From Callorhinchus milii (taxonomy: Eukaryota): DNA of 64,000 nt. Location: positions 18,416,001-18,480,000 of the forward strand of contig NW_024704743.1 in assembly GCF_018977255.1 (NCBI RefSeq). Direction: 5' to 3'. Made by a program: the position numbers and the translations under genes. The notes beneath the pieces were generated by a model. The model worked only from the letters and a program-made list of their open reading frames with translations. It did no database searches and was not told the DNA's origin. Shown here one piece after another: positions 7,109 through 55,495 of the stretch. The stretch's first letter is position 1. Each line of letters starts with the position of its first letter.

Positions 7109-7620
7109 ATGACTTATTCTGAGGGCAGTGTGAATTCCCGAAGGATACCTATGCGAGTAAGACTAAGCACAGGATCACCTGGCTCAAACTCGACCCCGAC
7201 TCTTTTATTTCAGAGAAGCAGCATCCAGAAGTCCATCAGAACCAATTCTCCAATTGCTCGGTATAGCAGTGCTTCCCTTGGGAGCAAACGCAGTGATATT
7301 GACATGGCAGACTTCTCCTTGGTGGACGGTTTCAGCAGCGAGTACAAAGCCACTCGCACCAATGAGAAAGAAGAGATGACAAAGTTGAACAACCGTTTTG
7401 CCAACTTCATCGATAAGGTGAGGTTACTGGAACAGCAGAACAAGATCCTTAGTGCTGAGCTGGAGCAATGGAAGGGGAAAGGGTCATCCAAGATTGGAGA
7501 TCTTTATGAACAGGAGCTGAGAGATGTACGTCACCATCTGGACCAGACCATCAAGGAGAAAGCCAAGGTTCAGTTGGAAAGAGAGAACCTGATTGATGAT
7601 TTGAAGAAGCTCAGGAGCAG
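7109..7620 (+). CDS. Copy A exon 1 (head, coil 1A, start of coil 1B)
   Basis: MTYSEGS...[32 protein letters not shown]...; phase-2 donor at 7621. Confidence 0.92.
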
Positions 7621-10600
7621 GTATTTTTATTTTCACTCTCTATATTTATTCCATTCTCACTCTATACCTATATTCCATTCTTTACCTATATTTAAAAAGG
7701 GAAAAAGAACAAGCCCAGGGAATTATAGACCCGTCAGCTTCACATCGGTGATAGGAAAGATAATGGAATCCTTACTGAAGGAGGTAATAGAAAAACATCT
7801 AGAAACGGAAAACATAATAAAGAACAGTCAGCACGGATTTCAAAAAGGAAGGTCATGGTTGACCAACCTCATTGAATTCTTTGAGGGGTAACAGAAAGAG
7901 TAGACAAGGGTAATGCGGTAGATGTAATATATTTAGATTTCCAAAAGGCATTCGATAAGGTACCACATAATAGACTAATGAATAAGGTCAGAGCATGTGG
8001 AGTCAGGGGAAAATAGCAGAATGGCTAGCAAGCTGGCTGCAAAACAGAAAGCAGAGAGTAGGGGTACAGGGTAGCTACTCAGACTGGCAGGGGGTGGGCA
8101 GTGGTGTTCCACAAGAATCGTATTGGGACCACTGTGTTCACAATATACATAAATGATTTGAATTCGGGAATCAGCAGTACAATTTCAAAATTTGCAGATG
8201 ACACCAAATTGGGGGGAGTAGTTAATAAAGAGGAGGCCTGCCACAAATTACAGCAATACGTTAATAAACTTGCTCAATGGGCATTTAAATGGCAAATGCA
8301 TTTCAATGTAGAAAAGTGTGAAGTGGTACATTTTGGTAGAAGGAATAAGGAAGTCACGTACATCCTGGAAAATAAAAACCTAAATGGGGTAGAGGAACAA
8401 AGGGACCTAGGGTTACACATACACAATTCACTAAAAGTAGCAATGCAGGTTAATAAGGTCATAAAAAAGAAAAACAGTTATTGGGGTTCATTTCTAGAGT
8501 GATAGAAATGAAAAGCAGGGAAATTATGGTAAATTTCTACAGAACCTTGGTTAGACCACACTTAGAATACTGTGTGCAGTTCTGGTCCCCACATTAAAGA
8601 AGGAATGTAGAGGCACTGGAGAGGGTGCAAAGGGGATTCACAAGGATGATCCCAGAACTGAGAGGTTATACCTATCAGGAAAGGCTGAACATACTTGCAT
8701 TATTTTCTCTTGAAAAGAGGAGGGTAAGGGGTGACCTGATAGAGGTCTTTAAAATCATGAAAGGTTTTGGTAGGATAGACATAGGGAAGATGTTTCCACT
8801 TGTGGGAGAGACCAAAACCAGAGGCCATGAATATAAAATAGTCACAAATAGATTAAATAGGGAACTTAGAAGAAATTTCTTCATACAGAGAGTAGTGGGA
8901 ATGTGGAACATGCTACCACAAGGAGTTGTTGAGGCAAATAGCATAGATATATTTAAGGCAAAACTAGATAGGTACATAGGGAGAAAGGAATAGAAGGTTA
9001 TGTTTGAAGGCTTAGTTGAGGAAGGGCAGGAGGAGGCTCATCTGGAGCATAAGCACTGGCATAGACCAGTTGGGCCGAATGGCCTGTTTCTTTGCTATAT
9101 ATTCTAATGTATTTGATGAGGATTGTTATTCATCACCTGTTACTGATAAAAAAAACCTTTGTGAGTAGACTTCTCTTGCCAGTGTTTCAAAAGTCGAAGA
9201 AATAATATTTTTTTCAGCAGATCAGCTAAAACTTCCACCTCAATGCAGAAAGAGAGATCTTGAAAACTGACATTAGACCCATGCTGGGTCACATTTTATT
9301 TGACCTTCTCAACTTGATTCCCCACATTGTAATTTCTCCAATGCAGCTTTATCAAGTGCTCTGAGACATCCGCCTGACACGAAAGGTGCTTTAAAAATAT
9401 AAATTGCATTGAATTGCATTGACATGCAAATATGGAAACAGACAGAATAATGATATGAATTTTGACAGCCTTTCATTTTTAATGCACGGTGATATGAATT
9501 AGCTTTCTATAGTGACATTACTGATATCCTGGTAAGCCTTATATTTTACTAAGTATGAATTGATAAAAACAATTTAGCATGCTTATTTTATTTTTTAAAT
9601 TTTACCAGTGTAACATTCAATGTAACAATAAAATTCTTTGAAATGACCTGGATCAACAACAACAAATTACATTTATATAGACCCAAGGTGCCGGACAGTC
9701 AAGGGTTTGCATCTGAACTGGGGGTTGGAATCAACAGGGGTGGGGGCCAAGGGGAATGGAGGCTGGAGGATAACTGAAGGCACAATCAAAGATCAAAGTA
9801 GAACTAAATCTCCATTTTTGGGGGGCCGTCAGTCGGATTTCTGACACAAACGGAAACCCATCACCATGCTTAAGAGTATCCAAACCAAACTGAGATTTCC
9901 ATGAGTCCCACCTACACATGGAAATTCCAGATATAGATTGTTGGAATCCCTCCCCTGGAGGAATGGATTGCCTCCAGGAACTGCTGCGACTAGCATGGCA
10001 TGTAACTCAACCTAATTCTGGAAAGTATTAGGCACAACTTGGCAAAAGCCAAGGCTTGGGGTCCCCAGAATCTGCATTGGGTTACTGCTGGAGTATAACC
10101 AGCTTGCCATTGATATTGCACTGTCTGGCAAGCTTTCCCACTGCTTGTCCAGCTAGAATCACCCTATCTGTTAGGGCTCTGGCTTGTAAGGTTAACAGGA
10201 GCTGATTGGGATGACTCCCTGCTCCCAATGACTGGTTTGCCCTTTCAGGTCCTGCCGATGAGCCAGGCTGACTGTGCATTCATCAGCAGTGCCCTGGACT
10301 ACTGCGGATCCACCGAGCTCAGGAACTGGATTACCAAAACCACCACAGAGGGCTGACTCGGCTCTGACATTCCATTGCCAAGCATGTCACCCTGGAGACA
10401 GTTCAGCTCCAAGGAAACCCCGCTTACCTCCCTCCATGGAGGATGCTGCCTCCAGAGACACAATGGAGTCCCTGATAAACAAGACCTGGAACTTTTACTG
10501 CTTCGAGTTTGAACTGTACGGGTGGCTCCTGTACAGGTGTTGAGGGAGGCAAGGGAGGAGGAAAGACAGAGGGACTGTGGGATGTAGTTCCAGAGATTGG

Positions 10601-11795
10601 GGGCAGAGAGGCTGAAGGCCCGCCCGCCAATGGTGGGGTGGGTAAGACAGGGGGACGTAAAGCAGGCTGGAGCCCACTGAATAGAGGGAGCGGGCAGGTT
10701 AGTATGGGGTAAGGAGGTCACAGATGTAGGGAGGAGCAAGATCATGGAGGGCTTTGAAGATGAGGACCATGATCTTGAACTATATCGTCTGAGTGTGCAG
10801 AGCCAGTGAAGCCAGTCGAGGATGGAAGTGATAGCCAGTGAAGCCCAGAGTTGCGGAGTCTGGTGTGGGAGAGAACATGGGTTGCAGAGTTCTAGATGAT
10901 CTGCAGCCTGTGGAGGGAGGAGTTGGGGAGGCCGACAAGCAGGGAGTTTGCATAGTCAAACCTGGATGGATGACGAAGTGGCGGAGCTGGGCAATATTGC
11001 GGCGGTGGAGAAAGGTGGAGTGGGTCATGACACGGATGTGGAGGATGAAGGACAGTTGAGAGTCGGACAGGACACCGAGGTTTTGTATTTGCTCTGTGAG
11101 GTGTAGAGTGATTCCATGAAGGTAGATGCTGTCAGTGCCTGAGTTATGGAGGTGCTGACGGGATACAAGCAGGAGGACCTCGGTCTTGTTGACATTTTAC
11201 TGGAGAAAGTTAGCTCTTATCCAGGACTTGATGTCTGACAGGCAGTCTGTGAGGACAGCAGTGATCCTGGAGTCGAGGGTGGAGGCAAAGAGGTAGAGTT
11301 GGGTGTCATCCGCATACATGTGGACGGTGACCCCATGTCTATGGATGATGTCACCAAGATGGCGCATGTAGATGTTAAAAAGGAAGGGACCAAACACAGA
11401 GCCCTGAGGGATGCCACACATGATGGCACGGGGGCTGGAGGAGAAGCCATTAGTGGAAACAAAGTGGAGATGGTAGGAGAGGTAGGAATTGAACCAGGCA
11501 AGGGCAGGTCCGTGGAGGTTGAGCTGAGAGGAGAGGTGGTGGAGGAGGATCAACTGGTCGACAGTGTTTAAGACAGTAGAGAGGTCGAAGAGGACAAGGA
11601 GGCAGAGAGAACCCAGGTTGCAGATGGACAGAATGTCAAAAGTGACTTTTACCGGGGCTGTTTTGTGCTGCCGACAGGGAAGGATTCATAGCGGGAATGG
11701 TGGGAGAGGAAAGAGCGAAGCAGGGTTGAGACAACTCGTTCCAGAGCCTTGGAGAGGAAAGGGAGGTTGGAGATGTGGCGATAGCAGGAGTAGTG

Positions 11796-11848
<53 letters not shown>

Positions 11849-14800
11849 CCTTGCATTTGATATAGCACTTTTCACATCTTCTAGACGTTCCAAAGTGCTT
11901 CACAGGATATAAAGTGAATTGACTGTATATTTGGGGTGAAACTCAGCACAATTGTGCACAGCAGTGTCCCACAAACAGTCATGGATTGAACTGACCAATT
12001 TATTATTTCTTTTTTTGAGGGATTATTATCAGGTGTGTGGAGTAAGGAAACTTGCCCAAGGTTTTGCCCTGCCGGGAATCAAACTCAGGTCTCTCTCTTG
12101 TGAGACAAGTGTTCTACCCACTGAGCTACACGCCTCCACTTAGCTCCAGAGAAGATTACAGGATGGGTGCAGGGAAGGTTTTTTGCGTATTGGGGTGATG
12201 ACAGCTGTTTTTGGAGGGGTGGGTACAGTGCCAGTGGATAAGGAGTGGTTGATAATGTTGGCTAAAAGAGGGGCCAGAAGGTGGAGCTGGGAGGTAAGGA
12301 GAGGCGTGGAGATGGGGTTGAGGTAGCAGGTGGTGGGCTTCATTTTTTAGATGATGGAGGTGAGGGAAGAGTGGTAGACGGGTTCAAAGGTATGTAGAGA
12401 GGAATGGGTAGTTATACATCTGCTTACTTTCTGTAACAAGGAATAGTTAGACCCATCTTGTCTCAGGTCAAATATATTTTCTTTGTCCATGTTTTTTTCA
12501 ATGTGAACCTTTTCAACTCAGATATTTTGCTTAGCTAACTGAATAATTGTTGATTGTGCCATCTTTTGATGTTACAATGTCTAAAATGCAGAGCAAAGTT
12601 TATTATTATTATATTCTAACTGATGTCAGAAATCTTCTGCATTTTCTTTGGAACATTATACCCATACTTACCACAGGCTTCAGTTAGTAAAAGCCAGTGC
12701 TCTGTGCCCAGAGATAAATTTTATCATTCAGCAATTAGTTTCATAAGTATTTTCAAAGTTACTTTGGGAAACGTATTTCTGCCATAATGGGCACCAGTGA
12801 TATTCACAGTTATCTGAGCCAAATGTGTTCACCTACAGTTGTTATTTTATCATCAATTGCTACACCACATGAGCATTTTTAGCAAGTAATTTCTTCTTTT
12901 GTTTTATTTTCATTAGACACACATAACGAAGCAGGGTTCCCTTCTACTTGATACCATAATTGGAGTCCTGTTACTCAGTGGTTAGAGCACTAGCCTTGCA
13001 AGCGAGAGACCTGGGTTTGATTCCTGGCAGGCTGAAACCTTGGGCAAGTTTCCTTACTCTACACGCCTGATAATAATCCCTCAAGAAAAAAATAATAACA
13101 ATTTGGTCATTCAGTCCATTACTGTTTGTGGGACACTGTTGTATGCAATTGGCTGCTGCGTTTCGCCCACAAATATACAGTCAATTCACTTTACAGTATT
13201 TTCTGTGTAGCGCTTTGAGACGTCTAGAAGATATGAAAAGCGCTATATCAAATGCAAGGATTATTATTATTATTCTGTCTGGCACCAAGGATCGAGTATT
13301 TAGATTTTCTGCAAATGTCTTATCACAATACAAGCAATAGCTATTATCTAACACTATCATCTTAACAACACTTATTTTATCATCTGTGCAAAACACAGAG
13401 CAAACAATTCAACCCAAAGCATCTCTATTGTGATTAAATATCACAAATGACCTATTCTTTAGTTATTTAATTCTGGTTAATTAAATATTGATAAAACATG
13501 GAAGATAATTTTAATATGAATTAAACAATATTCATCATAATGGTTTGGTTGAATATCCAAATACAAGTACCTGTCCAAATATCCAAATACTGGTGAAATT
13601 GAAACTCTTTCAGAAAGGATGAATGGGAGTAAGTAACTAAGCTAGTGGGTGTATAATAATGGTTGAATTAATGAAATGCTATCTCCAGTTGTAGACGCTC
13701 CAGATAACCACCAACTGTGTTTAGAGACCAAATGATAATAGGATTGCTTAATGTGCCAGCCACAATTCATCTTCTGAACTTTTATTTGCAGCCTGCAAGA
13801 TGAAATACAACAACGGCAGGAAGCTGAAACCATGCTATCAGATTTCAGAGAGGTACAAAGATGTAATAATTATAAAGTTGAAAATATCACGCAGTTATTA
13901 ATTTAATAAAATGTCAATAATTCAAGTTGCAGACAGATTCCAATGATCAGGTGAGTCTTGGTGTAGCAGAGACATCTAGTGGAAAAGAAAAGGTTAAAAC
14001 CGGACACACCCATTTCCATTCGTTGGATTGGAAAGGAAGTATAGAAATATGTTTCACAGGAGAGGTTTGGGAGAAAAAGGTTGCCCTCTGCCAGCTGCGT
14101 CAGCTGTGTGACACACTTTCAGACGTCCTCTTGACATAAGAGGCGCATATAAATGTAAATTGTTTTTATCCATTCGAGCAATGAGGATGATCCCCGTTGT
14201 TAGAGCATTGGCCTATCAGCATTGATTAGTCAAGCTAATCCAGGGCTAGGGCTCTTCAGGCTTGAGAGAAGAAGACTCAGAGGGGACCTCATAGAGGTGT
14301 ATAAAATCTAAGTGGGATCAAAAAAGTAAACCCAGATCAATACTTTAGGATGCACAATAGAAGACAATAGAAATCAAGTACATATGTTTAGAGTTGTAAA
14401 GGACAATTTCAGGACAGATACCAGGAAGCTTTTCTTCACTCAGAGGGTTATTAACAACTGAAACATGTTACCAGGAAGGGTGGCTGAGGCCAGGTCACTG
14501 GAGTCATTTAAAAAGTAGCTTGTTGCTGTGATGGGCAACGGTAGGGTCAGTGTCGTTAGAAATTAGGAGATTTTGGGATGACCAAAATTGACCTCTTCAA
14601 ACTTTTGAAGAAGATTGACAAAGATGACAGATAGTTGTTTACATGTTAAAGTTTAGGAAGTTCGGAGTGAGGAGGAAAGTCAGCAGAACCTTTTTAAACC
14701 CAGAAAAGATTAGATTTGTCGACAAAGTTATCAGAGAAGGTGATTGCATCAAATAGTACAAATGGGTTCCAGAGGCCACCTGATGCTTCTTTTTTGGAGA

Positions 14801-17800
14801 GAGTGGGTTTGGTGGATGTGATGATAAAATAAAAATGTGGGATTGCAAATAATCAAAAGAGGTTTGGTTCATTGAGTCGAATGGCCTTTTTCTGATCTTA
14901 AAACTTCATTATGTGCTATGTCTCAGTGGGGACATAAAATGTTGAGATTTGAGGTACCTGAGGTGAAATTGGCTACAACAACAACAACAACAAGATTCCA
15001 TTTATTGAGCGCCTTTCACGTCGGGAGGACGTCCCAAGGCGCTGTACAGTTGGGTCAGGACCCGAGCAAGGGGGAAATGGTCAGGGTGCGGGGAGGGAAG
15101 GGAGGGAGCGAGGAGGGGGTAGAGAGTCGAGAGGGAAGCTGAAGGCACTTTTCATTCATGAGGCCAAAGTATCGGACTGATTTGTGGTTCAATTTCTTGT
15201 CTGATTCCTGGCTATTCTAATTCTTCTATAGTATATAAAAAATGTTTTCTTTTTAGCTTTTTATTTTCTTTATATTCCAAGTGGTAAATGTGAAGCAATG
15301 CTCACTACAGACCTCTTGGCAAATGCCATCATTTCCAGTCCAAAATTAGCCAACCAGTTCAGTCAAGCAATTCTAACTGCACAATGCCAGTTTTTCCACT
15401 CTTGTTGACATTAATGATCTTGCCTTCATGTAGCACTTGGCTACAAATTTCAGTCACTTTGAGACGTCGAAAGGGGCTATACCAAATATAAGGGTCAATT
15501 ATTACTCCTGATATGTTTCAGTACTAGAGCAAAACAGACACAAAATTTACAAAACTCAAACCAATTTAGACAGTCTAATATTGACTGCTAGAGCACCCTG
15601 GGAATCACACCTCAACATTCACACTTAGAGTAAAGATTTCATCTGTAAAAGCTTCTTACTGTCCAAAGTGCTGAACGCTTGAAAGTCTTGGACCAGCTAT
15701 CTTTAGCAATGCCAATTTTACTTTATGAGATTGGTAGGCCAAAAAGGATATAATGCAAAATCTGTTTTAAGCGAAACATTGCAGCTTTTTTTTCCTTGTT
15801 TGTGTTCCCATTTCTCATTCAATGGGTTCAATTTAGCGATATATTTGATGCTTATCCCAATGAATGTACCAGATGTACATGTCGCAGACTCGCACAATCT
15901 TGGCTAGGAACACGATCTTATCAGGAAGTCCTTTGCCAGTGGCCACACAGCAGTGATGCTGTGAGAGCACTTATCAGATACACTCCATTGTGTGGGTAAA
16001 GCGAGTTGGCACTGTGGTGGGTTTAGCTGTCTCTGCCAGGTATCTCTATGGAGTGGCATGACAGACTGAGATTCTATCTGAGACATATTTTTCAGCCTCA
16101 AGATTGAAAGTACCATAAAGCTCAGTGAGTGAAGTCTAAACACTGGTCTAAATCAGGGAAACAGTTGTTTGCCATGGAATGCAGCCATGCCGAATGCAGC
16201 AAGCTCTAGTATTAAAAATGAAATTGAATGGATGCCTTTGTGTAGCTGAAAAATAGCCGGGATTAGTGCAGTTGGTTTAGCGGCAGCAACATGATCATGC
16301 CATTAATGAGGAAGTGACATGGGAAAGTTGGGAATATTTTTTGTGCTGATGCAATATAATATACATTCCTGCCGCATATTCTTTCCAGGATAATCTAGCA
16401 GGTTTGAGTGCGACTGTTACTTTAGCCTGGGTCAAAATTGCTCTGCAACATACACTTTTGTGTGACTGGAGCATCAAATGCGTTGGATTGCAATAACAAA
16501 GAATATGCAGCGCGATCTATATTGCACAGTATCCGCTTGAAAAAAAATTCTTTGTCAGTTCCTCACCAATGGCATGACCTTTTTCCCACATATTGTTATG
16601 TAATAATTGTGTTTATTACTTGTACAATAGCTTTTGTAGCCTTGTTGTGAAAGATTATACTCTATGCAGTTGGCAGAATCATTGTTGCCATGTAAAAATA
16701 TAACTTACAATAATCATCCTTGCATTTGATATAGTGCCTTTCATTTCAAAACACTTTACGGGATATACTGTAGTGACTGTATATTTTGTGGGCCAAATAA
16801 TTTGCGCACAGCAATGTCCCAAAAAAAGCCATGAAGTGATGAACAATTGTTTGGGGGAATGGTGGCCAAGACATCAGGAGAAACTCCCTTCTGTTTTTGA
16901 TTAGTGCTATGGGATCTTTAACATCCGCCTGAAAAGGCAGATGTGACCTTATATAACATCTTATTGGAAAAATGTTACTTCCAACAATATAGCACTCCCC
17001 CAGGACTGCACCGGGATGTCAGCCTAGAGTATTCAGTGAGCAAGTTTTGAATTTATTGTCATTCATCTCATGGTTCTTTGTGGGATCTTGGTATGTGCAA
17101 AATGACTACCATGTTTGCCTATAAAAAATAACTATAACAACAACGACTTGCATTTATCAAGCGCCCTTCACGTGTGGTAGCGTCTCAGAGTGCTTTAAGT
17201 AAATAATCATTTACTTGACAGTAATTACTATAAAATGATGGTTCAACATGATGCAGCACTATAAAAATGCAAATTTTTTCTTTCTTGCTTGCTTGCCTTG
17301 TAGTTTTAATACACAATATCATTCCCTTTCACAAGCAATCTTTTAAACAGTTTTCTCTACTCTTAGACAATCTTAATTCAATTTATTTACGGCTGGCTGT
17401 ACCTTTCAAGAGCTTTGAGATATCCTCCTGACTTGAAAGGCGCTCTATAAATGTAAATTGTATTGTATTTACAGATGATCAGAGAATCTTGCGGTTATTC
17501 TGGTATGTTCACTATGTTTGAACCAAATCTTTTGAAGTCTGCCTAGTTATAATGAGAAATGCCTTTGAAACAATAATCTTGAAGATTTGTTGCACTTAGT
17601 TAACAGAACAGTTTAATACCAACAGTTTGTTCCCTCGCATTCTTGATCTATTCATACACTTGTAATCTGTACCCAGGAATTCAAAACATCTGTCTTCATC
17701 CTCGCTTGTGTAAATATTTCATGTCTGGTCTGCTTCATTGGTGCACAAATCCCCGTACTAAATTGGACACAAAGTCTATTTATGTTCCAACTTCATTCTT

Positions 17801-34920: not shown

Positions 34921-34926
34921 AATAAA
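34921..34926 (+). terminator. Putative polyadenylation signal of copy A
   Basis: AATAAA about 320 nt after the stop, followed by GT-rich sequence. Confidence 0.65.
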
Positions 34927-39174: not shown

Positions 39175-39745
39175 CACTCACTCACAAACTAACTCACTAA
39201 CACACTCACTCACTCACTAACACACTCACTCACTCACTAACACACTCACTCACTCACTCACTAACACACTCACTCACTCACTAACACACTCACTCACTCA
39301 CTAACACACTCACTTACTAACACACTCACACACTCACTAACACACTCACTCACTCACTAACACACTCACTCACTCAATACACTCACTAACACACTCACAC
39401 ACTCACTAACACACACTCACTCACTAACACACTCACTCACTAACACACACTCAATAACACACACTCACTAACACACACTCACTAACACACTCACTCACTC
39501 TCACACTCACACACACTCACTCACTAACACACATTCACTCACTCACACTCACTAACACACTCACTAACACACTCACTAACACTCACTCACTCACTCACTA
39601 ACACACTCACACACACACACTCACTCGCTAACACACTCACTAACACACACTCACTCACTCACTCTCACACACTCACACACACACACACACTCACTCACTA
39701 ACACACTCACTCACTTACTCACTAACACACTAACCAACTCAGTAA
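39175..39745. repeat. Compound (CACT)n/(CACTAACA)n simple repeat
   Basis: Seen directly. Confidence 0.95.
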
Positions 39746-41850: not shown

Positions 41851-44800
41851 AGTCAGTCAGTCAGTCAGTCACTCAGTCAGTCAGTCAGTCACTCAGTCAC
41901 TCAGTCAGTCAGTCAATCAGTCACTCCCTCACTCACTCACTCCCACTCACTCACTCACTCCCACTCACTCACTCCCACTCACTCACTCCCACTCACTCAC
42001 TCCCACTCACTCACTCCCACTCACTCACTCCCTCTCACTCACTCACTCCCACTCACTCCCACTCACTCCCACTCACTCCCACTCACTCCCACTCACTCCC
42101 ACTCACTCACTCACTCCCACTCACTCACTCACTCCCACTCACTCACTCTCACTCTCTCACTCTCACTCACTCACTCCCACTCACTCTCACTCACTCTCAC
42201 TCACTCTCACTCACTCTCACTCACTCTCACTCACTCTCACTCACTCCCACTCACTCACTCCCACTCACTCACTCCCACTCACTCACTCCCACTCACTCAC
42301 TCCCACTCACTCACTCCCACTCACTCACTCCCACTCACTCACTCCCACTCACTCACTCCCACTCACTCACTCACTCCCACTCACTCACTCCCACTCACTC
42401 ACTCCCACTCACTCACTCCCACTCTCTCACTCTCTCACTCTCTCACTCTCTCACTCTCTCACTCTCTCACTCTCACTCTCTCACTCTCTCACTCTCTCAC
42501 TCACTCACTCTCTCACTCTCTCACTCACTCACTCCCACTCACTCACTCCCACTCACTCACTCCCACTCACTCACTCCCACTCACTCACTCCCACTCGCAC
42601 TCCCTCACTCCCTCACTCTCACTCCCTCACTCTCACTCACTCACTCACTCCCACTCACTCACTCACTCACTCCCACTCACTCCCACTCACTCCCACTCAC
42701 TCCCACTCACTCACTCCCACTCACTCACTCACTCCCACTCACTCACTCACTCTCACTCTCTCACTCTCACTCTCTCACTCTCACTCACTCACTCCCACTC
42801 ACTCACTCCCACTCACTCCCATTCTCAACAGCAAAACGGCAACCATCCGTTTTGGAGAGAGCGCATTTTTCACGTCGGGGCGACGTCCCGAAAGGCGCCG
42901 GAGAGTTGGGTCGACGACCCGAGCATTGGGTGGGTGGGTGGGGGGTGGCGAATGGTCAGGGGGAGGGGAGGGATGGGATGGGGGCGAGGAGGGGGGAAAT
43001 GGTTAGGGTGAGGGGGGAGGGGAGGGGGCGAGGAAGGGGGAAATGGTCAGGGTGAGGGGAGGGGCGAGGAGGGGGGAATGGTCAGGGTGAGGGGAGGAAA
43101 GGGAGGGAGCGAGGACATTGGGTGGGTGGGAGGGGGGGGGCGAATGGTCAGGGTGAGGGGAGGGGAGGGATGGGGCGAGGAGGGGGGAAATGGTCAGGGT
43201 GAGGGGAGGAAGGGAGGGGGCAAGGAAGGGGGGAAATGGTCAGGGTGAGGGGAGGGAAGGGAGGGAGCGAGGAGGGGGTAGAGAGTCGAGGGGGAGCTGA
43301 AGGCGCGGTCGAAGAGAAAGGTCTTGAGACCGGCCTTGAAGGAGGAACTCCCCTTCACCCCCACCCCCTCCAAAAAAAAAACACACCCAAGTTTTAAGAG
43401 CCTCTAAAGAACTTTTTTTTTAAACAAAACAAAAGCCCCGAATATTTGTGCTTGGACTTCGTCGTCGTCGTCATAATAATAATCATCATAATAATGATCC
43501 TAATATTACGTGCGTTTGATATAGCGCACGTCGTCGTCGTCGTTGTTGTTGAGACGCGTCTCAAAGCGCTTCGCAGAATAGACCGTTAAAGGGAATTAAT
43601 TGACTGTGCATTTTTGCGGGTGGAACTCGGCAGCCGATCGCACTCGGCAGTGTCTCACGAACAGTCGTGGATTGTGTGACCCTATCAGTATTTATTGTTA
43701 TTATTATTTATGTATCTCGTTTCGGTGACGAGCGATCGTTGTCCAAACGCAGGCACTGTACCGTTAGATCGCACCTCGTCAAGGGGGGCTCGATTTTATT
43801 TTGCCTACTTTTGTTTTTTTTTAAAAAAAAATTATCTGTTGGGACACGTTGCTAAATTTGTGGAGTTTGCAATAGAAGATGGTGGGTTCCCCCCCCCCCG
43901 CCCGCGCCCCCCCCCATTCGGCAAGTAGAAAGCAATCCTCGTCCCTCTCTCTCATCATTGCTCGCCTCACTTTGCTGACCAGAACCAAGCAACGTGTAAC
44001 ATGCAAGAGCAGTAAATGCCGAATCCCACTTTGCTTCAGGGGGCGGTTACTGGTGGGGTGGACAACCCTTTCTAATGTACTTGTAGTTTTCACGTACAGT
44101 AAAACTCCCATCAGTCTGATCTGCATAAATTGTATAATCTGCCCAAGTACCGTTCAAGAGTTTGTAAGTCTATTGCAAGTTTTGCATCACTCATACTTTG
44201 CAGGAATCGTATTAAATGCACGGTCCCAAATGATACCCCGGGTGGAGCTTACTGTAAATCAAAACCCTAAGCTGATTGATGGATTGGAGTTTGCATCGAA
44301 TTTGTAGATCTGTTACATAGTCCCCCGCTCCCTCCCTATTGTACCCCTCCCTATTTCACTCGAGTCTTCCCGTGTGATCCAGTTTATTAGTCTGTCCTGT
44401 TTACTGCACTTACAGAAACTCTTCAAAACAATAACGACGTTACCTTTACTCTTCCTCGTGTTATATTTGCAATTTGGGGGGTTGGGAATACCAATCTTGT
44501 TTTATTCAACTACTTTGCCCGTTGCGAGCGTTCAACCATTAGATTGTTGTAGATCAACCCAAATGCTTTTCTCTTGTGGGTTTTTCATTCGTTTTACCGC
44601 AACATTGCGCTTGGTGGGGGGAACATTGCACTTGGAGCTCACTGGAACATCGGAGAGTTATGTGTGAGTAAGAGAGAGAACACGTTAAAGTTTTCACTCA
44701 GCCAAATGCTGCGGATAAACCACAGGCGCCTGGAATCCGGGCGGTCCGCTGATATGACAATAAATGCCGGCTGACCGTCTGATCCGTCCTTTGCAGGCTG

Positions 44801-47800
44801 CAAGATGAAATGATTCAGCGGGAAGAGGCTGAAAACAACCTAGCAGCTTTCAGACAGGTAAGAGAGCATTCATTTGCACGTTTCACCGAACCAGCCGAGC
44901 GAATGCATTGGAATCGTTTCTTGGAACGGGCGTTAAATCAGTTGCAAGTGACAGCACTGAGACCTCAGTCAGAGCTCCCGATCCTGGGCGTGTCGGGGTA
45001 GCAGAGACATCTAGTGTCGATGGTGAGCTCAGACCGAACTGCACCCACCCATCAGAAAGGAACTAAACGACTACAGGGACACACCCTCATTCTAGTCTTG
45101 AGACTTGTGTCGATAAAGGGAGTTAAATATAGCATTTTCAATCAACGTTTCGCCCAGGATCCTACCTTAAAACCATTAATATGGTATTTTTTCTTGCATT
45201 AGTATTATTATATGCCAAATGTGTTGTGTTATTACTGTGTGCCAAGTGTAGGAACAGCCTGCATTTTAGAGGTTCCTAAAAATTGTGCACAGAATAATTA
45301 AGACCCAAAACCGTAATGAACTTTCTTCGGAGCTAACCGTCTAAAAGTATTTTTAGGTTTCAGAATGCATCCAAACGCACTGAGAGCAAAAACTAATAAT
45401 TTATGTCTATTTATTATGAATTGCTTTAAATCAGATTTGCGAGAAGCTTTTGGGTACGAATGCTATGTATGAGAATTATATTTAAATTTTAGTTTAATTT
45501 CGCTGATTGTGTGTCGGTTTCATTTTGAAATAACTCCTTGTCAAAGATTGGCTGAAGACCTTCTCAAAAGCCTAGAATACCTTGACTTCATTCATCTTGT
45601 TTGAAAATTGTGTTTTTGCTCTGATACAGTGGCTATTTTTCATGAATGATCTATATAAATGCACGTTGTTGTTTTGAGTACCTAATGCACACACAGTAAT
45701 TGTTATTTATGTGTATCAGGCTAGTGAATATCAGTAGGTAGGGCATGAAGAGTCAAGACACTGTTGAATGTTATCTTGTCCTCATCCAATGTCGTGCATC
45801 TGACCTTTGAGTAGAAACCACCAGGTAGCAATTGAGTGGGAACTGGGGTTGATTTTTGTCTGTGGACACGGTCAGTAGCCGTGCCCCATCCCACCCCAGT
45901 TGAGCAGATTCGGCTCAAACAAGGCTCATCCTGCCTAAGACTTTCTTGATAACATGTATGTTCAGCAATGCACTGTGGGGTTCATGTACTCACTGAACAA
46001 TTGGAGCATTTTACCAATGATGTCCCATTGCTGGCTGCTACAACTACACGTGAGCAGCCTGGGGTGCTTACTTAGCTTTCCATATCCCTCTATTCCTAAG
46101 AGAAAATGCTTAGTCTCTGTTTGCTGACTCTTATGATGGGACAGCTCATATCTGAGACAGTGTGGCCAGAATCATTGGTTTGGCCATTACATCATTAATA
46201 CCGGAACTCTACCATTGTGCAGAAGTTTTATGAGTTAAACAACAATGACAGAATTTAGATTTCCCCTTCCTCCCCTTTCCCCACACTTCATATTCTATTT
46301 GTTCATATAATTATGTAAGGTTGCTTCTGGAATGTATCTTTTCAAGACTGAAGAGTCTAGTTTATCTTACCATTGCTCTTCAGGCAGTAGGGTGGGGCAG
46401 TCTGCTCCAGACTACTGAATAACGCTCTGAGTAGCTAGTAGTACAGTAAAACAAGTAGCACTATTATGGGATCACATGAGGCATCACACCACACTCATGC
46501 ATTGCCACTGAGACATTTTATACTGCGGTTTAAAGATGCCATAAAACTTAGTGTTTTCGCTACTTAGGTTGCAGGGTACTAACATCAGGGAAGGAGATAT
46601 TCCAATAACATCAATAAAGTTCCAGCCAAGATTTGTCTTGGAATGCAGCTCTGTTGAATGTAGCAGGTGTGAATATTAATAATGAAATTGAATAGTTTAA
46701 TTGAAGCAGCGACGGCCAGTGCAGTTGGCCTATTAGCAGGAGAGATGTGTCATTGATGAGGAAAAGATGTGGCAAAGTTACTTTTCCTGCCAATAGAAGC
46801 TAAGTTTTTTTTTGCTACTATCTGAGATCCAATGCTATTATAAGAATACACCCTCCTTTCTTCTTTATTTTCTACTGAAAGCAGGAACATATTCTGAGAG
46901 AAGCTGAAAGCTTGCTTGTATTCTTTGCCTGCCACCTACGCATGCACATTTCCAATAAAGAACACCAGACCTCAATCAGGGGCAAGATCCCTCTCAGCTT
47001 TGTACACTTACACCATTTTTAGCATCCTCGCCACTGTTCAGAGTGCAACCAGTTAACTCAGCACAGACCGAACTGATCCTGTTAGCCTGTATGACATTTA
47101 CTCTCAGTTACCATGGGAACATTTTGCTCACACTTCATGTCAATTTCACTGGATTGTTTGCACCTGCTGCAAAAAGTCTGCTACTAAAAGCTTGTTTTCT
47201 TCATGGCAGAGAAAATCATTCCAATTAAATTCAGCAGTATTCAATGTAATTGTTAAACACCCTCGGGCCAAAATTGTGACATTTGAGAATTTACTTGTAA
47301 AAATAATGCGTCTAGTATTTTGTTCAAAAGCCTCCCGGCATCAAGATCCTGTTTTAGTCACAATTTGCAGGTGAGATGGTCAGGTGCAGGTGCAGGTGAC
47401 CGAATGTTGGATGGGCTGAAGCTTGTGGTCAGTGGAACTGGGGAGGCCAGAGAGGAGGGCATTTATAAAAGTCAAGTTTATGGGTAACAAAGGCATGAAT
47501 GAAGGTTTTTGGCAGTGTTGGGCATAAGATAGGGAATGGAGGCAAGTGATTTGGTGAAAATACAGAAAAGCATTTTGGTCCAGAGTGGGGTGTGAGAAAG
47601 GAAAGAGCTGAGGGTCAAATCAAACATTGCGGTTACCCTCTCATTCAGTGAATTTGAGAGAGTGAGGAAGTCTGAGCCAGATACAAGGACGTATTGGCAA
47701 GAGGTGAGGAGGATGGCTTCTGTTTCATCCGTCTTCAGATGAAGAAAATGTATTGGATTATCCAGGACTTGATAGCTGACAAGCAGGCAGTGAGAACATA

Positions 47801-50800
47801 TTCCCCCCAAGGAGGTCATTTTGAGCATTATTAATTTTGAAAATCACAAGAAATGTAAAGGGTAAAATTCCAACCTTGTCTAGATTTACTTTAATAACTT
47901 AGTTTTAGAGCATTGAGAAATTAGCAAACTGTTGAATTTGGTCTTAATTTTGACGCCAGTTTTCTGAAAGTTTTGTTTTAGAACTACAAACATTTATGGG
48001 CACTCTGAAATGTTTAATAAAGAGAGAAAATCTCGATATAGGTGGCATTTTACCCCAGGGAGTGCTGCAATCCATTTAACGCAAAAAGCCATCTGTTTGA
48101 GCTTATTTGGGGAGGGTTTCCATGTTACTGTTCTGTCAAGTGAAAGAACTCACAATTCTTTCAACCTTGCAAATGAGTCAGGATTTATTTCTGGTAGAAT
48201 TCCAGTCTTTGGAAGTGAAGTGTGTAACTACATCAACTTTCAAAACTCAGACTCCAGCAGTACATTAATTATCTAAACAGGCGAATGCTATTACTCGCAT
48301 GAATGCACTTAAGATTATCACCAGGAACATGAAAGGGAAAATTAAGAAAAACATTCTCTCAGAAAGTTCTGCGAATATGGAATGAATCGCCAGGGGTACA
48401 TTGGGGACAATTAAAAGGGAATTAGATATGTTTATGTGGAGGAAGAGTATGAGAGGCTATTGGAGAAAGATCAGGGAATTTGAATTAGAATAGATGCTTT
48501 AATTGAAGCGCAAACACTGACACTAATGCAATCATGTCTGCTTGACTCAATTGGTAGCACTCTTACCTCCGAGTCAGATTTTGTAAGCTCGACCCCTATG
48601 ATGGGACTTCAAATTAAATTTAGTCCAATACTGGGTTCGGGCAGTGTAGCGGGAGATTCTACCAATGTTCTGGCCAACAGTCCCCCAGATAAAATGGGCC
48701 TTTAACTTCATGGCTGCTTGTGGGACACTGCTGTGTGTAAATTGGCTGCCACATTCTCCTCCAAAATGGGGTCCTATAAAGCATTTTGAGACATGCTCCC
48801 ACCGTGAAGGATGCTGTATAAAATGTTAATGGATCAATAGTCTCTTATCTCTCATTTCTATAATTCACTTCATTTAACAAATAAGCAACAAATATTCAAA
48901 GAATAAGTTAAATAAGAATATATGCAGAATTACTGCTCGAGTGCTGTTTTAACAGGGCATTTTAGAGTCGTTCTGAAGCCTTTGTTGTAGTTTGTAAACT
49001 TATCGGATATTCAGTGAAAGGAGATGTCTGTTCAGGAACATTGTCACTCTCTACTAATCTCTTTTTAAGATGCAAGCAACTCTGTTTGACTTTTTATGTT
49101 AAATGAACAGAAGCCTAATTTAGATGCCCAGCTACCCAATGATCCAAAAAAATATATTTTGTTTTAATCAGGTGTCTGGCACCTGCAGACACCCATCACC
49201 ATCCAAACCAGACTGAAGAGTTCCACACATGCATGGACATTTTTGTTTGTCTGGAGTAATACAAAGAAAGGAAACTGAACAACAACATGTACATACCCAT
49301 TTAGTCCACCAGAGAATGCAGGATGGAAAATGTGGTATGTGATAATGATCACCTGTCAGCATTATATCATGATAAATATCACTGATGATTGTTAACACAT
49401 CCTGATGATAATTGTCACGTCTCATAATGCTTTTTCACTCCATAGATTACTAGGCAAAAACCTATTTGTGCAGCATGTTTATTAACTGTAGCTAATTGTA
49501 ATATAGCCATTGTTATACTATCAGGAAAAAGTTCTTGTAAATCATTGTAATTGTGCTAATTATTGCTTTTGTCAAGCCCTTGATGGACTTGTTTGTATTG
49601 TCTCACGCAGGATGTGGATGATGCCTCTCTGGCTCGTTTGGACCTGGAACGCAAGGTGGAGTCTCTGCAAGAAGAAATTGTATTCTTAAACAAACTTCAT
49701 GAAGAGGTACTCTGTTGCTCTTTTGTCTACCTCTCCTTCCCTCCCCAACTCAGGTGCCCAGACAGCCATGGGTGAAGCACTTTGAGACTTCCTCCTGACG
49801 TGAAAAGTGTTCTACTCAAATTTAAGGATTATTATTAGTAATGTGAAATAGATGGAGAATAAAGCTTTCATATTTTATGAGTTGCAATATCAGAAATCCC
49901 CTCGTGTTATATGCTGTAATTGTAAAATGTATTGTACTCTTGTTTAAAATTCCTTACGTAGGAGAACAGGGGCTGTTTGGATAGTATGACACTCAAATTT
50001 ACCTGAATTTACCCATTTCCTCAGGAAATTAATGAACTGCAGGCTCAGCTCCAGAGTCAGCATGTGCAGATTGAGATGGATGTGATTAAACCTGACCTCA
50101 CTGCAGCTCTGCGTGAAGTTCGATCTGAGTTTGAAAACCTTGCTGCTAAGAACATGGTGGAAACCGAGGATTGGTACAAGTCCAAGGTGAACTATGATAT
50201 TTCTTTCTCATTTTTGAGCACATTTGCAGAATATCTTGAGGTAGCTTGACTGAAAACAAAAATGTTAAAAGATCAGGGATCATTCAGAACATACTTTGAA
50301 TTCCAGGCAGTCATTGGTCCAAGTTAAGTCCTATTATAGTAGCTCATGCCAATTGCTGACTTGTATTTTCCTTGCTATTTTTTTCAGTCTCCTCCATAAA
50401 AACAGTGTCCACTCCTGCAATGTGTCCCAACCTGCAAGCTGAACACTCAAACCTTGTGTATTCCAACTTATACATACCCATTCTGACTCCTAACCCACCA
50501 GTGTCGCCCACTATGTCTCTCCTGTGTCAACTAGTAACATGCTTGTTACTAGGTCAGGAGGTTGCGTATTAGAGATCCATGTCTGGACCTGACCTCATAA
50601 TCCAGGGAGAAATTGCAGAGCAGTACTGTCTGAGTGGTGCATTGTTGGGAGTTGTTGTTTTTAGAATGAGATGTAAAATGGAGGTACCCTTTAAAGCATT
50701 GTGCGCACATTTTGAAGAGTGGAGAATTCTACGTGTCCTGACCCTGATTGAATCTGGGACTTTCACATTGAGAATTTGTTTTGTTAACCTGACCATCGGG

Positions 50801-53800
50801 GGGGGGGGGGGGATCTACAATAAATGCTTTGGGATGCTGTCTTTATGTGTCATAGAAATTTTTCAAGCACTCATTGAAATCCTTCTTTTGAAACAGTTGA
50901 CTGATCTTACTGATTCTGCTTCTCGCAACAATGATGCCTTGCGTCTGTCAAAACAAGAGAATTCTGAGTCACGTAGACAAGTCCAGGCACTGACCAGTGA
51001 AATTAATGGACTTCGGGGAACGGTAAGTTGTCTCAACAACGACGACGATTTGCATTTATATAGCAGCCTTCATGTGGGATAGAGCCCCAGAGCACTTGAT
51101 AGTGGTGGAGTCTGACAACGAACCAGCGGAGAGGAAGTGGGAGATGACCGTTAGCACAATCAAAAAGGAAGGTCTTTAGATGGGATTTGAAGGTGGGGAG
51201 GGAGGGGGCAAGGCAGAGGAATTGATGGAGAGAGTTCCAGAATTTGGGGACATAGTGGCTGAAGGCATGGCCACCGGTGATGGAACGGAGGGTACGAGGG
51301 ACAATTAGGAGGCCAGAGCCAGCCAAGTGGAGGCAGCGGATGGTGGAGTGGGGGGTAAGCAGGTCAGATAGGCAGCGAGGTGTGAGGGAATGAAGTGATT
51401 TGAAAACAAGTGAGAGGATCTTGAGATTGATCAGTGAAGCCTGGCAAGGACTGGTGTGATAAGGGTACGGAGATTCGTGAGGGTGAGTATCCAGTCAGTG
51501 GAGTTTTAAATTAATTAGATTTTGTGTATGGTGGAGCTGGGGAAGCCAGCGAGGAGGGCATTAGAATAGTCCAGTCAGGAAGTGACTAAGGTGTGGACAA
51601 AGATTTTAGCTGCATCGGTTGTGAGGTATGGATAGAGGTGAGCAATGTGGTGGAGTTGGAATAAAGCGGTCCTGGTCAGGGAATGGATGTGGGGTAGAAA
51701 GGAAACATGGGGATAGAAATTGACATTCAAGTTGTGCATGGGTTCGGAGAGTCTGAGGGAGAGCCCGGGGAAGTTGTGTTCAGGCCTGCAGGAGTGAAGA
51801 TGTTGACAGGAACTGAAGAGTTTGGTTTCCATCTTGCCAACATTCAACTGCAGAAAATTCAAGTAATCAAAATCCTTGCATTTTACATAAAATCTCCTGT
51901 TTCTTGAACAATTTTTAATTGCTCTCAGTGATTTGTGTATTACAATTATTGAGTGAAATATCCCCATCAGTTTAGCCTTAGACCTTTTTTCTTAAGGTTT
52001 GTAGAACATGAACTTTTTGGACAATTCTATTTTATGTTTGAAGACAGTTTTCTGTGGATCATTTTAAAATTGCAAAATTACCTCCAATGAAGACTAGATT
52101 TAAGAATTGTCCAACTTCACACCTTAAAATGCTTAAGAAAAAGTCAAGACCCAGGCAGAATTTCTATCCCCTGTTCATTATACTTTGATTGACTCTTCCC
52201 CTAACCTGTCAGCTGTATGCATTCTAGCTCTCTTTAGTGTGAGACTTGGCAATGGGAATTTCTTCTCCCAATGAAGAATAGGTAAACTCCTACAAGATTA
52301 TTTTCTAGAATATATGAATAATGTCTCCTGTATATCTAATGCTTTCAATATCATTAGAATCAGTCACAGCCCAAGATATTATGAAAATCCTCCCTACACA
52401 TACAGCTGCTGCTGGAATGCATGAAGTAGGGAAACAGAGGAAAGAAAATTAACAACAAATGTAATTATTTGCTTTAAAACAGAATGAATCTCTTGAGCAC
52501 CAAATGCGGGAAATGGAGGAACGATTTTCCATGGAGGCAAACAACTACCAGGACAACATCAGTCAGCTTGAAGAAGACATCCATAATTTGAAGGATGAGA
52601 TGTCCCGTCACTTGCAAGAATATCAGGACCTATTGAATGTAAAGATGGCCCTAGATATTGAGATTGCAACCTACAGGAAGCTTCTGGAGGGAGAGGAAAC
52701 CAGGTGCAAGATTTGTGTGATTTCTGTGCGCTTGAACTGGGGTGGGGGGGGGTGGTGAAAGATCTTCGTTTGAAAACCAAGATTTGAAAGTCAAGAGGGA
52801 AGGTGTGAGGTGAAAGGATTTCGGGAGAGATTTTAAGAGAATAGGGATAAAGTGGCTGAAGGCTTGCCTGCTGATGTGGGACAGAGCAGCAGTGGGCACA
52901 GAGCAGGTTGGAGTTAGTGAAGTGACCAGGGGAGTAGGGCAGATGAGGACAAGAGTCTTAAAGTGATCCACTGGAAGCCAATGCAGCCAGGTGAAGATGG
53001 GAATGATGGGCTTGCAAAACCTGATATTAAAGAGAACACAAGCAGCAAATGTTTGGAATTTCCAAAATGTGGAGCTGGGGAGACTGATGAGCAGAAAAAA
53101 TCGATTCTGGAGATGACAGAGGTGTGGATGAGACTTGAGGCTATTTGGGGATGAGGTAGTGATGCAGATGTGGAGTGGACTTTGTCAGAGTCTAGATGAA
53201 AGGTTTGAAGGAGAGTTGAGAGCAAACAAAACCCTAAGTTCAAAATGGACTCCCGTGATTTGTAGGGAGCAACTGAGGCAGTTGATATGGTCAGCCCCTG
53301 AAGTGAGGAGGCACTGACTGGACTGGAGCGAAATAGCAGCCTCAATTTTTACCTGTTTAGTTGGAGAAAGCAGTTTTTTTTTTTGTTTTTTTCACTTAAA
53401 CATCGAAGGTTTTAAAACAAAACTTTTTCCTATGATAAAGTGAATACCATTAATGGTTTAGGTAATCCAGATACACATCTTTGTATTTAGCTTTATATTA
53501 TTGAGACTACTGAGACTAGTCATTGATACAGTGATACATTTCTATAACTATTGATCCAAATCCCGTTCATATGAATCATTTTACCACCTAACTCTTGACA
53601 TTATTATCTGGAGGTGTAAGGTTCATTTGTTTCTAACTTGACCACTACTTGGAATGGACCATATGGATGGAGAAATTCATCTGTTTTAGAAGGGAGAAGC
53701 AAGGGGAAGTAAACAGTACTTTGTCAAGGAAGAGAATTGTCCTTTTTTTAAAAAAAAATGACCATTGATCTGAATTACTATTGGATGTTATGCAGAAATG

Positions 53801-55495
53801 CACACACTTTATATCAGTAAATGGGGAACGTTGAAATAAAAGTCATATTTTTCTTTACAGGATTGCTGGACCCATCCCAAGCTTTAGTTCTCTATCCTTT
53901 CATGGTAGGTGTTTTTTCCTTTTATGAGCACATAAATCGTGTCCTTTTATGAGCACAGGGATAAGTCCATACTTAGACCAAATGTAAGGATTAATAAATT
54001 GGCTCCTTTTTCTATTAGTTTAAGTGTCCTGTAATATTCTTGGCCAATGGAAAAGTATTTAAGCGCTCCTTCACTAGATTAAAATTAGTTAACCACAATA
54101 AAATGTACAAGACATGTAGATGAGATTACAACTAGGAGTATGGTGGCTAAGGTTTAGAGGAACTTTTCCTCTATAGACTTGCTAAAATGTTGAAGCCACG
54201 CCTGGCACGTCACTTGTGTGATACAAAGTCGATTGCAGCCTTTACACAGGAATAAGATAAACACTAATTAATTCATTAATTTTTTAACACTTAAGAGGAA
54301 GATTTGGAGAAAAAGCAGGGAATTGGGGATTAGGATCGATGTCTTTAGTGGAGGATCAACTACCATCCTGCCTACTATGTCACTGAATTCTGTGGTTCTA
54401 TGGCCACTAGCTCTTGTTTGATGAATCAGTTAGTTGGCCTTGAATTATTATAGATCTGCTTGATTTGATAAGTCATTATCTCCTGGAGAAAGTTTAACCC
54501 TGAGGAGTTATTACCCTCCCCCCGACCCCGGCATGCATCCATTTTAACAACCTTGAAAGATTTTAGGGCTGAGTATTCCTAATTGGATTTAAATTCAGAA
54601 CCTTTCTGATGCTGAATCAGATGACCTATCCAAAAGGTTAGATAGTTCATTCAACGAAATGCTGTTGATTCCATTTTATACTTGTTTTGTTTTACAGACT
54701 CCACCTATGAGCACCAGCCCATGTTGGAATCCAAGAAAAGAATTACGATCAAAACATTTGAGACACAAGATGGAGATGTAAGTATCTGATTCTGTAAATT
54801 AAAAAAAACTTAATGTCTCCCAAAGACCATATTATTTTAACTGTGGCCTGACCAGCATTCCGTACAAGTTCAAATTGGCCTCTTTAGCCTTGTACTCTTT
54901 CTAATAGGGGTGATACCCTTTTCTTTGATGCTCAGGCTATGAAAGGGAAATTCAGTTATGCTCCCACTCCTGAAAACTGTTTTGCTCCCACACCTGAAGA
55001 CCTTCCTCTTTGACAATGCTTATGGTCATCTCCCCCCAGCTCGGTGTCATGCTCTGCCACTGTTGAGGACTTTGGGCCTCTGCCCTGCATCAGGGGCACT
55101 ATATAAATGCAAGCTGCTGTTGTGTAATTAAATCTTTTTGGAAAGTTTGTGTGACTATTGTCAGTGTCCATAGGAAGCACTCTGAGCTTAAGACCTGGTC
55201 AGATACAGATTTTAAAAAATTCTCTGCTCTGCCCCACATCTATTTGGCTCTAATGTCTTCCACGTTTGAAGAATCCACCAAATCTTTTAATTTTACACAT
55301 GATAAATGGCTGTTTGAAAGGGACCAGAGGGTTTCTCATGGCATCTGGCTTTAGGAGAGGAGGACTTGAGAAAATTGACAAAGAAATCATGTGCTGCATG
55401 CATCTATTTTATACATTGATGGAAAAATTACATTGAACAATTTCTTTTTATATTTGAAGGTGCTCAGTGAAACTACCCAGAGAATTGAAGACTAA
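41263..55495 (+). CDS. VIM: Vimentin (copy B), 9 exons, 462 aa
   Basis: join(41263-41825,44797-44857,49611-49706,50025-50186,50897-51022,52483-52703,53861-53904,54698-54777,55460-55495) = 1389 nt with an open frame and GT-AG introns. Vimentin-like segments include [23 protein letters not shown] and [19 protein letters not shown]. Vimentin 3'UTR element present; divergent from TRDMT1 as in the human locus. Confidence 0.88.
41830..42820. repeat. Compound (CAGT)n/(CACT)n/(CCCACT)n/(CTCACT)n simple repeat at the start of copy B intron 1
   Basis: Seen directly. Confidence 0.95.
42837..43350 (-). mobile_element. L2 3'-end fragment with internal tandem amplification of an approximately 40-bp unit
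   Basis: AATGGTCAGGGTGAGGGG is repeated about 6 times here but occurs once at 4601-4870. Confidence 0.8.
44797..44857 (+). CDS. VIM: Copy B exon 2 (61 nt)
   Basis: [20 protein letters not shown]. Confidence 0.94.
47380..47810 (-). mobile_element. Old L2 fragment
   Basis: [18 protein letters not shown] remnant; homologous to the other L2 copies. Confidence 0.65.
49611..49706 (+). CDS. VIM: Copy B exon 3 (96 nt)
   Basis: [32 protein letters not shown]. Confidence 0.95.
50025..50186 (+). CDS. VIM: Copy B exon 4 (162 nt)
   Basis: [33 protein letters not shown]...WYKSK. Confidence 0.95.
50897..51022 (+). CDS. VIM: Copy B exon 5 (126 nt)
   Basis: [42 protein letters not shown]. Confidence 0.94.
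51035..51860 (-). mobile_element. L2 3' fragment whose tail starts about 12 bp after copy B exon 5
   Basis: [11 protein letters not shown] and [10 protein letters not shown]; closely related to 3236-4215. Confidence 0.85.
52483..52703 (+). CDS. VIM: Copy B exon 6 (221 nt)
   Basis: [15 protein letters not shown]...[24 protein letters not shown](R). Confidence 0.95.
52760..53370 (-). mobile_element. Old L2 3' fragment
   Basis: [14 protein letters not shown]...FKTL and AFSHF remnants. Confidence 0.7.
53861..53904 (+). CDS. VIM: Copy B exon 7 (44 nt)
   Basis: [14 protein letters not shown], tttacag acceptor and gtaggt donor. Confidence 0.9.
54698..54777 (+). CDS. VIM: Copy B exon 8 (80 nt)
   Basis: (D)[26 protein letters not shown]. 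Confidence 0.9.
55460..55495 (+). CDS. VIM: Copy B exon 9, coding part
   Basis: [15 protein letters not shown]. Confidence 0.88.
   Translation: MLSETTQRIED

Follow-up and report, generated by a model that had tools for sequence, protein, structure and literature searches.

A second vimentin-type filament gene beside vimentin in the elephant shark, likely kept by cartilaginous fishes for more than 400 million years

The 64,000-nucleotide (nt) stretch of DNA analyzed here, called the window, is the TRDMT1-vimentin locus of Callorhinchus milii (elephant shark), and all positions are numbered within it. Two complete type III intermediate filament genes were located on its plus strand, namely copy A (7109 to 34604; 458 amino acids) and copy B (41263 to 55495; 462 amino acids). 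Copy A exon 1 was a 100% match to the C. milii record P0121 (UniProt A0A4W3JBH3), and copy B exon 1 was a 100% match to the C. milii protein XP_007896373.1 (P0001) over the aligned part of that record. Copy B is an ordinary vimentin. Copy A is a vimentin paralog and not a canonical vimentin; it was filed as a paralog because it has a serine at position 328, where canonical vimentin has its single cysteine. The data presented here make it quite probable that copy A is an intact, spliced vimentin duplicate from the chondrichthyan stem, and that it is likely to be a tissue-restricted partner subunit of copy B.

Each copy has nine exons, and splice-site scans combined with translation placed GT and AG at the ends of all 16 introns. 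Translation of the models revealed no internal stops or frameshifts (0 in copy A and 0 in copy B). Exons 2 to 6 have the same sizes in the two copies (61, 96, 162, 126, and 221 nt) and equal phases, and we take these rod exon sizes to be those of mammalian VIM as well. A first-pass annotation, made from the sequence letters, had described two intact, same-strand, nine-exon genes with the same rod exon sizes and phases, and the splice scans and translations agreed with this description.

In copy A, exon 1 (7109 to 7620; 512 nt coding) encodes the head, coil 1A, and the start of coil 1B, and it was recognized by the Pfam Filament model with an E value of 2.6e-23. It is followed by exon 2 (13792 to 13852); exon 3 (22644 to 22739), which holds Cys200, the counterpart of Arg217 in canonical vimentin; exon 4 (23233 to 23394); exon 5 (27542 to 27667), which has a serine codon (TCT) at the Cys328 position; and exon 6 (29122 to 29342), which encodes the conserved rod end. 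Exon 7 (30060 to 30097; 38 nt) and exon 8 (34173 to 34261; 89 nt) precede the coding part of exon 9 (34533 to 34604), which encodes an acidic tail extension and whose stop codon ends at 34604. The 3' untranslated region (3'UTR) spans 34605 to 34926, with an AATAAA at 34921.

Copy B exons 1 to 5 are located at 41263 to 41825, 44797 to 44857, 49611 to 49706, 50025 to 50186, and 50897 to 51022, and exons 6 to 9 are located at 52483 to 52703, 53861 to 53904, 54698 to 54777, and 55460 to 55495. Its protein contains zero cysteines, and its serine codon at the Cys328 position is AGT. A glycine-rich insert was observed within the head encoded by exon 1. The rods of copies A and B aligned with 0 gaps in 317 columns and were 62.5% identical, and copy A retained the conserved ends of coil 1A and coil 2 (positions 111 to 114 and 399 to 407). 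The Pfam Filament_head model gave copy A 21.4 bits, slightly below the cut-off of 23, and gave two orthologs 30 bits. No third vimentin copy was detected within the window using tblastn.

Four public runs were compared with positions 22500 to 35200, a stretch that begins after copy A exons 1 and 2 and ends before copy B. Runs X1 and X2 belong to the same study, and their RNA nature is our guess. One X1 contig, 1517 nt long, contains copy A exons 3, 4, 5, 6, 8, and 9 at consecutive record positions. The 38-nt unlisted stretch between exons 6 and 8 (record positions 1110 to 1147) equals exon 7 in length, and the contig runs on into the copy A 3'UTR as far as 34811. In X2, contigs join copy A exons 3 and 4, exons 5 and 6, and exons 8 and 9. 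Because the introns were removed at the modeled sites in both runs, copy A exons 3 to 9 are spliced, which bears out the spliced transcript that had been expected of this gene. The X3 contigs were continuous through the copy A introns and thus support the assembly. No copy A exon contig was present among the pieces listed for X8, which is no evidence of silence. At position 27616, in copy A exon 5, the C of the window is found in X3 and is replaced by A (His to Gln) in X1 and X2; this difference is most simply an allele. In the case of skates, ten Logan contigs of 1.9 to 2.2 kb each contained a whole 450-residue ortholog, a compactness that implies spliced transcripts.

The contigs also addressed the idea that the locus holds one functional gene composed of copy A exons 1 to 4 and copy B exons 5 to 9, or that copy A is a dead gene or was duplicated only in the assembly. 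UniProt A0A4W3JBH3 is exactly such a chimera. We give this idea almost no credence, however, because X1 joins copy A exon 4 to copy A exon 5 and continues to copy A's own 3'UTR, the X3 contigs match copy A introns and exons, and 37.5% of rod residues are not the same in the two copies. Since X1 joins exon 4 to exon 5 within copy A, A0A4W3JBH3 is likely to be a mis-joined model.

When the copy A part of A0A4W3JBH3 was used as a query, second vimentin-like proteins were identified in Heterodontus, Heptranchias, Chiloscyllium, and Cetorhinus, and cluster look-ups brought in Carcharodon, another Chiloscyllium species, Hemiscyllium, Stegostoma, Rhincodon, Amblyraja, and Leucoraja. A second copy (copy 2) was therefore found in nine shark species and two skate species. 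The records include XP_067863176, XP_067869455, XP_043546319, XP_041039758, XP_032869124, and XP_055511123, and the names assigned by NCBI are GFAP-like, vimentin-like, or type III-like. UniRef also lists a vimentin-like protein under the bacterium Kangiella spongicola (P0058), which is likely contamination.

In three maximum-likelihood trees of the rod, built under LG+G4 and a site-mixture model, copy A grouped with the elasmobranch second copy with support of 100/99. All chondrichthyan copies grouped together (88/90 and 98/96, and 99/97 under the mixture model), and support for the vimentin clade containing copy A was 96/94, 98/97, and 99/98 across the three trees. Rows were dropped from one of these trees for being long or redundant (15 of 50), and the mixture-model tree used a chosen set of 34 rows. 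A further, fast tree was built from 170 rod rows, after 11 of 181 had been dropped for having more than 35% gaps; its copy-2 clade consisted of copy A and nine elasmobranch rows only, with the proviso that a relative could be concealed by the clustering of the underlying library at 50% identity. A clade of copies A and B was rejected in three set-ups (P values of the approximately unbiased test [p-AU] of 0.005, 0.032, and 0.037), and independent duplications were rejected as well (p-AU of 0.006).

The trees identify copy A as the ortholog of the elasmobranch second copy. Given this orthology and the rejection of an A-B clade, the duplication would predate the split between chimaeras and sharks. 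PMC3692497 places the holocephalan-elasmobranch split at 421 million years ago (Ma), which would make copy 2 at least that old. Thus, it is very probable that the duplication occurred before about 421 Ma, and there is a good chance that it occurred after the split from bony vertebrates. A tandem duplication of vimentin in the chondrichthyan stem is likely, and it is likely that a second vimentin-type filament protein has been kept by cartilaginous fishes for more than 400 million years. The first-pass annotation had proposed a lineage-specific tandem duplication. The tandem duplication stood; the term lineage-specific failed for the chimaera alone and holds only if the lineage is taken to be all cartilaginous fishes.

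We also considered a duplication older than the jawed-vertebrate split, followed by loss of copy A in bony vertebrates. Under LG+G4, a union of copy 1 (the elasmobranch vimentin proper and copy B) with bony-vertebrate vimentin was not rejected (p-AU of 0.21 and 0.062). In contrast, an origin before that split was rejected under the mixture model (p-AU of 0.0195), all chondrichthyan copies formed one clade in two of the trees with support of 98/96 and 99/97, and no non-chondrichthyan row among the 170 rod rows joined the copy-2 clade. Hence, we regard such an early origin as unlikely.

The NCBI labels suggested that copy A and its shark counterparts might be GFAP or some other type III gene that already has a name. 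A union with a single poor GFAP row was not rejected (p-AU of 0.07), and a union with Xenopus desmin-gene-2, a protein that sat far from copy A in the best trees, was borderline (p-AU of 0.051 with one long-branch row). When three GFAP rows were used, however, the union with GFAP was rejected (p-AU of 0.0155 and 0.0117), and unions with desmin and peripherin were also rejected (p-AU of 0.016 and 0.047, respectively). A separate elephant shark GFAP (P0224) joined carp and bird GFAP with support of 99/98, and copy A sits between TRDMT1 and vimentin. Thus, there is very little chance that copy A is GFAP, desmin, or peripherin, and the placement of copy A outside GFAP, desmin, and peripherin, which the first-pass annotation had proposed to check by phylogeny, was upheld.

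The gene order rests on a minus-strand exon at 640 to 742 that matches the start of DNMT2/TRDMT1 and indicates the order TRDMT1, copy A, copy B. This first exon of TRDMT1 (DNMT2) is head-to-head with copy A, has a CpG-island promoter (observed/expected ratio [o/e] of 0.75), and has a GT donor at 639 to 638. A structure-sequence search produced a 17-residue match to solved DNMT2/TRDMT1 chains (E value of 0.0014), and Pfam did not recognize the 34-residue exon. TRDMT1 and vimentin are presumably linked in mammals as well.

The first-pass annotation had also pointed to residues shared by copies A and B as a mark of duplication in the chimaera's own lineage. Both copies do have these residues. However, the serine at the Cys328 position is the only one exclusive to them; the remaining residues occur in elasmobranch copy 2 or bony vertebrates as well, or they lie outside the rod and were unscored. 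Of the 317 rod positions, 16 are exclusive to copy A plus elasmobranch copy 2 and 1 (Ser328) is exclusive to copies A and B. Among 204 retrieved proteins, position 328 (numbered by the 466-residue seal vimentin P0026) is Cys in 197 and Ser in 3 (all of them elephant shark records), with 2 gaps and 2 other residues. According to PMC7818121, conservation of this cysteine extends from shark to humans, and PMC7177742 described C328S vimentin as oxidation resistant with improved polymerization.

A duplication confined to the chimaera lineage would account for a serine that occurs in copies A and B and in no sampled elasmobranch, and some noncoding blocks of the two genes still align (see below). 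This scenario is nevertheless very improbable, as the A-B clade and independent duplications were rejected in the tests described above, the exclusive residues number 16 versus 1, and the serine codons differ. Specifically, TCT in copy A and AGT in copy B are each a different single-base step from a cysteine codon. Because the two genes use different serine codon families, Ser328 was likely gained twice, judging from the codons. The shared residues were thus not supported as evidence of a duplication in the chimaera's own lineage.

The other diagnostic position is 217. A cysteine replaces Arg217 in 23 of the 204 vimentin-like proteins; all 23 belong to the copy-2 set, and every copy-2 protein has it. 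The hydrophobic pattern places Cys217 at heptad position a of coil 1B. An additional cysteine, three residues away from that of copy 2, occurs at position 214 in elasmobranch copy 1.

Asymmetric divergence of the two copies, another proposal of the first-pass annotation, was evident in a relative-rate test with gar as the outgroup, as 67 changes were unique to copy A and 28 were unique to copy B (P value of 8e-5). The same asymmetry was observed in Heptranchias and Amblyraja, and P values were below 0.02 in 12 of 12 tests. For exons 2 to 6, pairwise NG86 estimates were 0.82 for synonymous (dS) and 0.23 for nonsynonymous (dN) divergence, and the ratio of about 0.28, which is averaged over both branches, agrees with the purifying selection that had been proposed. 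That copy A is functionally new is something that we infer. Synonymous difference was lower in exon 2 (0.29; 12 sites) and exon 6 (0.36; 43 sites) compared to 0.50, and these two exons have too few synonymous sites to call gene conversion between copies A and B. At position 328, the different serine codons argue against such conversion.

A blind blastn comparison of the two gene regions identified two similar blocks in intron 2, beyond the exons and repeats. Block 1 (13960 to 13981 in copy A and 44995 to 45016 in copy B) is identical at 21 of 22 nt (E value of 0.011), and on the minus strand it may resemble a CTCF site. Block 2 (16168 to 16329 in copy A and 46632 to 46779 in copy B) had an E value of 5e-7 and was equaled by 0 of 300 shuffles; it is likely to be a retained regulatory element. 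A 47-nt block in the 3'UTRs (34802 to 34847 in copy A and 55714 to 55758 in copy B) was missed by the blastn comparison and was detected by local alignment, with 0 of 300 shuffles being as good. The promoters shared only a 12-nt TATA core (6992 to 7003 in copy A and 41110 to 41121 in copy B), a match reached by 2 of 300 shuffles. The windows for shuffling were picked after inspection, so all of these counts are optimistic. Hence, the alignable noncoding parts claimed in the first-pass annotation held up for intron 2 and the 3'UTR, and the alignable promoters were reduced to the TATA core.

The identical 12-mers differ in setting. The TATA core of copy B lies inside a CpG island (o/e of 0.78), whereas that of copy A lacks one (o/e of 0.36); the value for the window as a whole is 0.40. 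Loss of the CpG island in copy A suggests narrow expression, and the intron-2 blocks common to both copies suggest some regulation in common. At least 37% of the 26.1 kb of copy A intron is repeated within the window, versus 15% for copy B. Decayed LINE-like pieces, CR1- or L2-like by eye, were seen in copy A introns at 7690 to 9090, 10500 to 11700, and 31700 to 33750, and these introns are also full of copies of one short interspersed repeat.

The head net charge is +4 or +5 in copy-2 proteins versus +9 to +11 otherwise, and copy-2 tails are 62 to 71 residues long with a net charge of -6 to -11 versus 52 to 56 residues and -2 to -4. The head of copy A has eight arginines. The Ser-Tyr-Arg-Arg head motif is kept in copy B and blurred in copy A, and the RDG tail turn is missing in copy A and is Gln-Asp-Gly in copy B. 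This turn was proposed to bend back against the rod in PMC9235546.

These features suggest how copy A might work as a partner subunit. The conserved rod may allow copy A to make coiled-coil dimers and to join vimentin filaments, a mechanism that we regard as about an even prospect. The intact rod would permit copy A to dimerize and to enter copy B filaments, and the less basic head would weaken self-assembly and make copy A rely on copy B. The longer acidic tail would be expected to change filament spacing or bundling, loss of the RDG turn may alter packing, and the cysteine at the core a position of coil 1B could stiffen or cross-link A-A dimers. Reliance of copy A on copy B would be similar to that of head-truncated desmin on vimentin, since desmin without its N-terminal head region was described in PMC2116339 as failing to assemble alone and integrating into vimentin networks.

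With the same origin, copy A could instead assemble into filaments by itself and take the place of vimentin in one specialized cell type of cartilaginous fishes. Type III proteins are typically homopolymer competent, and copy A has a full-length rod without indels, intact rod ends, a head that still carries eight arginines, and diverged regulation with a lost CpG island. On the other hand, the head net charge is halved, the canonical N-terminal motif is blurred, and the regulatory-looking intron-2 blocks are still common to both copies. We consider a replacement filament possible but doubtful. A further and rather improbable idea is that copy 2 is an unrecognized fifth type III class, in which the invariant coil-1B cysteine would cross-link dimers or sense oxidation and in which redox control in elephant shark would now reside in copy A. 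Both elephant shark genes have lost Cys328 and copy B is cysteine free, so the copy A cysteine would be the only thiol left in the elephant shark vimentin system; if this is true, then redox control would have moved to the second gene.

Several observations weigh against a partner subunit that arose in the chondrichthyan stem. First, elasmobranch copy-2 heads retain a Ser-Phe-Arg-Arg/Lys motif that is blurred in elephant shark copy A, which makes the head argument weaker for sharks. Second, the grouping of copy B with elasmobranch copy 1 was weak (80/67 to 85/77), and the earlier origin described above was not rejected under LG+G4. Third, we infer the adjacency of the two copies in sharks from accessions, which are consecutive in Heptranchias, and from contigs of equal size (in five of the five elasmobranchs for which both copies were retrieved), not from DNA. 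Finally, five rod residues, three of them in exon 4, are common to both elasmobranch copies (rows P0002, P0140, P0167, P0170, and relatives) and absent from copy A, copy B, and bony vertebrates, which hints at gene conversion in the elasmobranch stem or parallel change.

Comparison with known proteins placed the stem duplicate among its relatives. Like vertebrate vimentin (VIM), copy A has a TRDMT1-side locus, the nine-exon layout also seen in copy B, and a colinear 317-column rod, and it falls within the vimentin clade. The direct counterpart of VIM is copy B, with a rod that is 77% identical to that of gar vimentin. In contrast, the copy A rod is 65% identical to that of gar and has about twice the rate of change, Cys217, and Ser328; moreover, copy A has a less basic head, a tail with an acidic extension and without the RDG turn, and no CpG island. 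The shark and skate copy-2 proteins are like copy A in having Cys217 together with 15 other exclusive rod residues and in carrying the acidic tail extension. Unlike copy A, they have retained Cys328 and a Lys/Arg-Asp-Gly turn in the tail, their head motif is better preserved, and the Gly of their rod-end motif is changed to Ser or Thr. Torpedo IF3T (P23729) and the elasmobranch vimentins named type III intermediate filament-like belong to the copy-1 lineage and group weakly with copy B; they are on the same chromosome as copy 2 where this could be checked, lack the copy-2 residues, and keep Cys328.

More distant comparisons were also made. GFAP has a type III rod, as copy A does, but forms a separate clade and is a separate elephant shark gene. 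Teleosts, like cartilaginous fishes, have extra vimentin-like genes, but the teleost rows grouped with bony-fish vimentin. Xenopus desmin-gene-2 (vimentin A2) is also an extra vimentin-like type III gene, but it falls outside the vimentin clade. We found no description of a second chondrichthyan vimentin in the open literature, and subscription papers may hold one; the supplements of PMC11806052 and PMC13188829 contained nothing on vimentin. The gene is already present in databases as automatic models with inconsistent names.

Two further features of the window were recorded. A broken Helitron lies downstream of copy B at 57000 to 60450, with a Helitron_like_N match (E value of 7e-20) and PIF1 helicase pieces (E values of 2e-20 and 9e-13) in several frames. 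Long, degenerate CACT-type simple repeats are present at 39170 to 39740 and 41840 to 42800, on either side of the CpG-island first exon of copy B.

As for annotation, studies of shark glia could be misled by the GFAP-like label on several shark records, and two genes are merged in the UniProt entry for elephant shark. Elephant shark copy B is a natural cysteine-free vimentin, and copy A offers a test, set up by nature, of the head, rod, and tail features that determine filament properties. An old, selected paralog is less surprising than a recent, neofunctionalized copy, but it corrects the record usefully and serves as a clean experiment of nature. It adds a paralog conserved for what is likely more than 400 million years to a small, well-studied family that is usually described as four genes.

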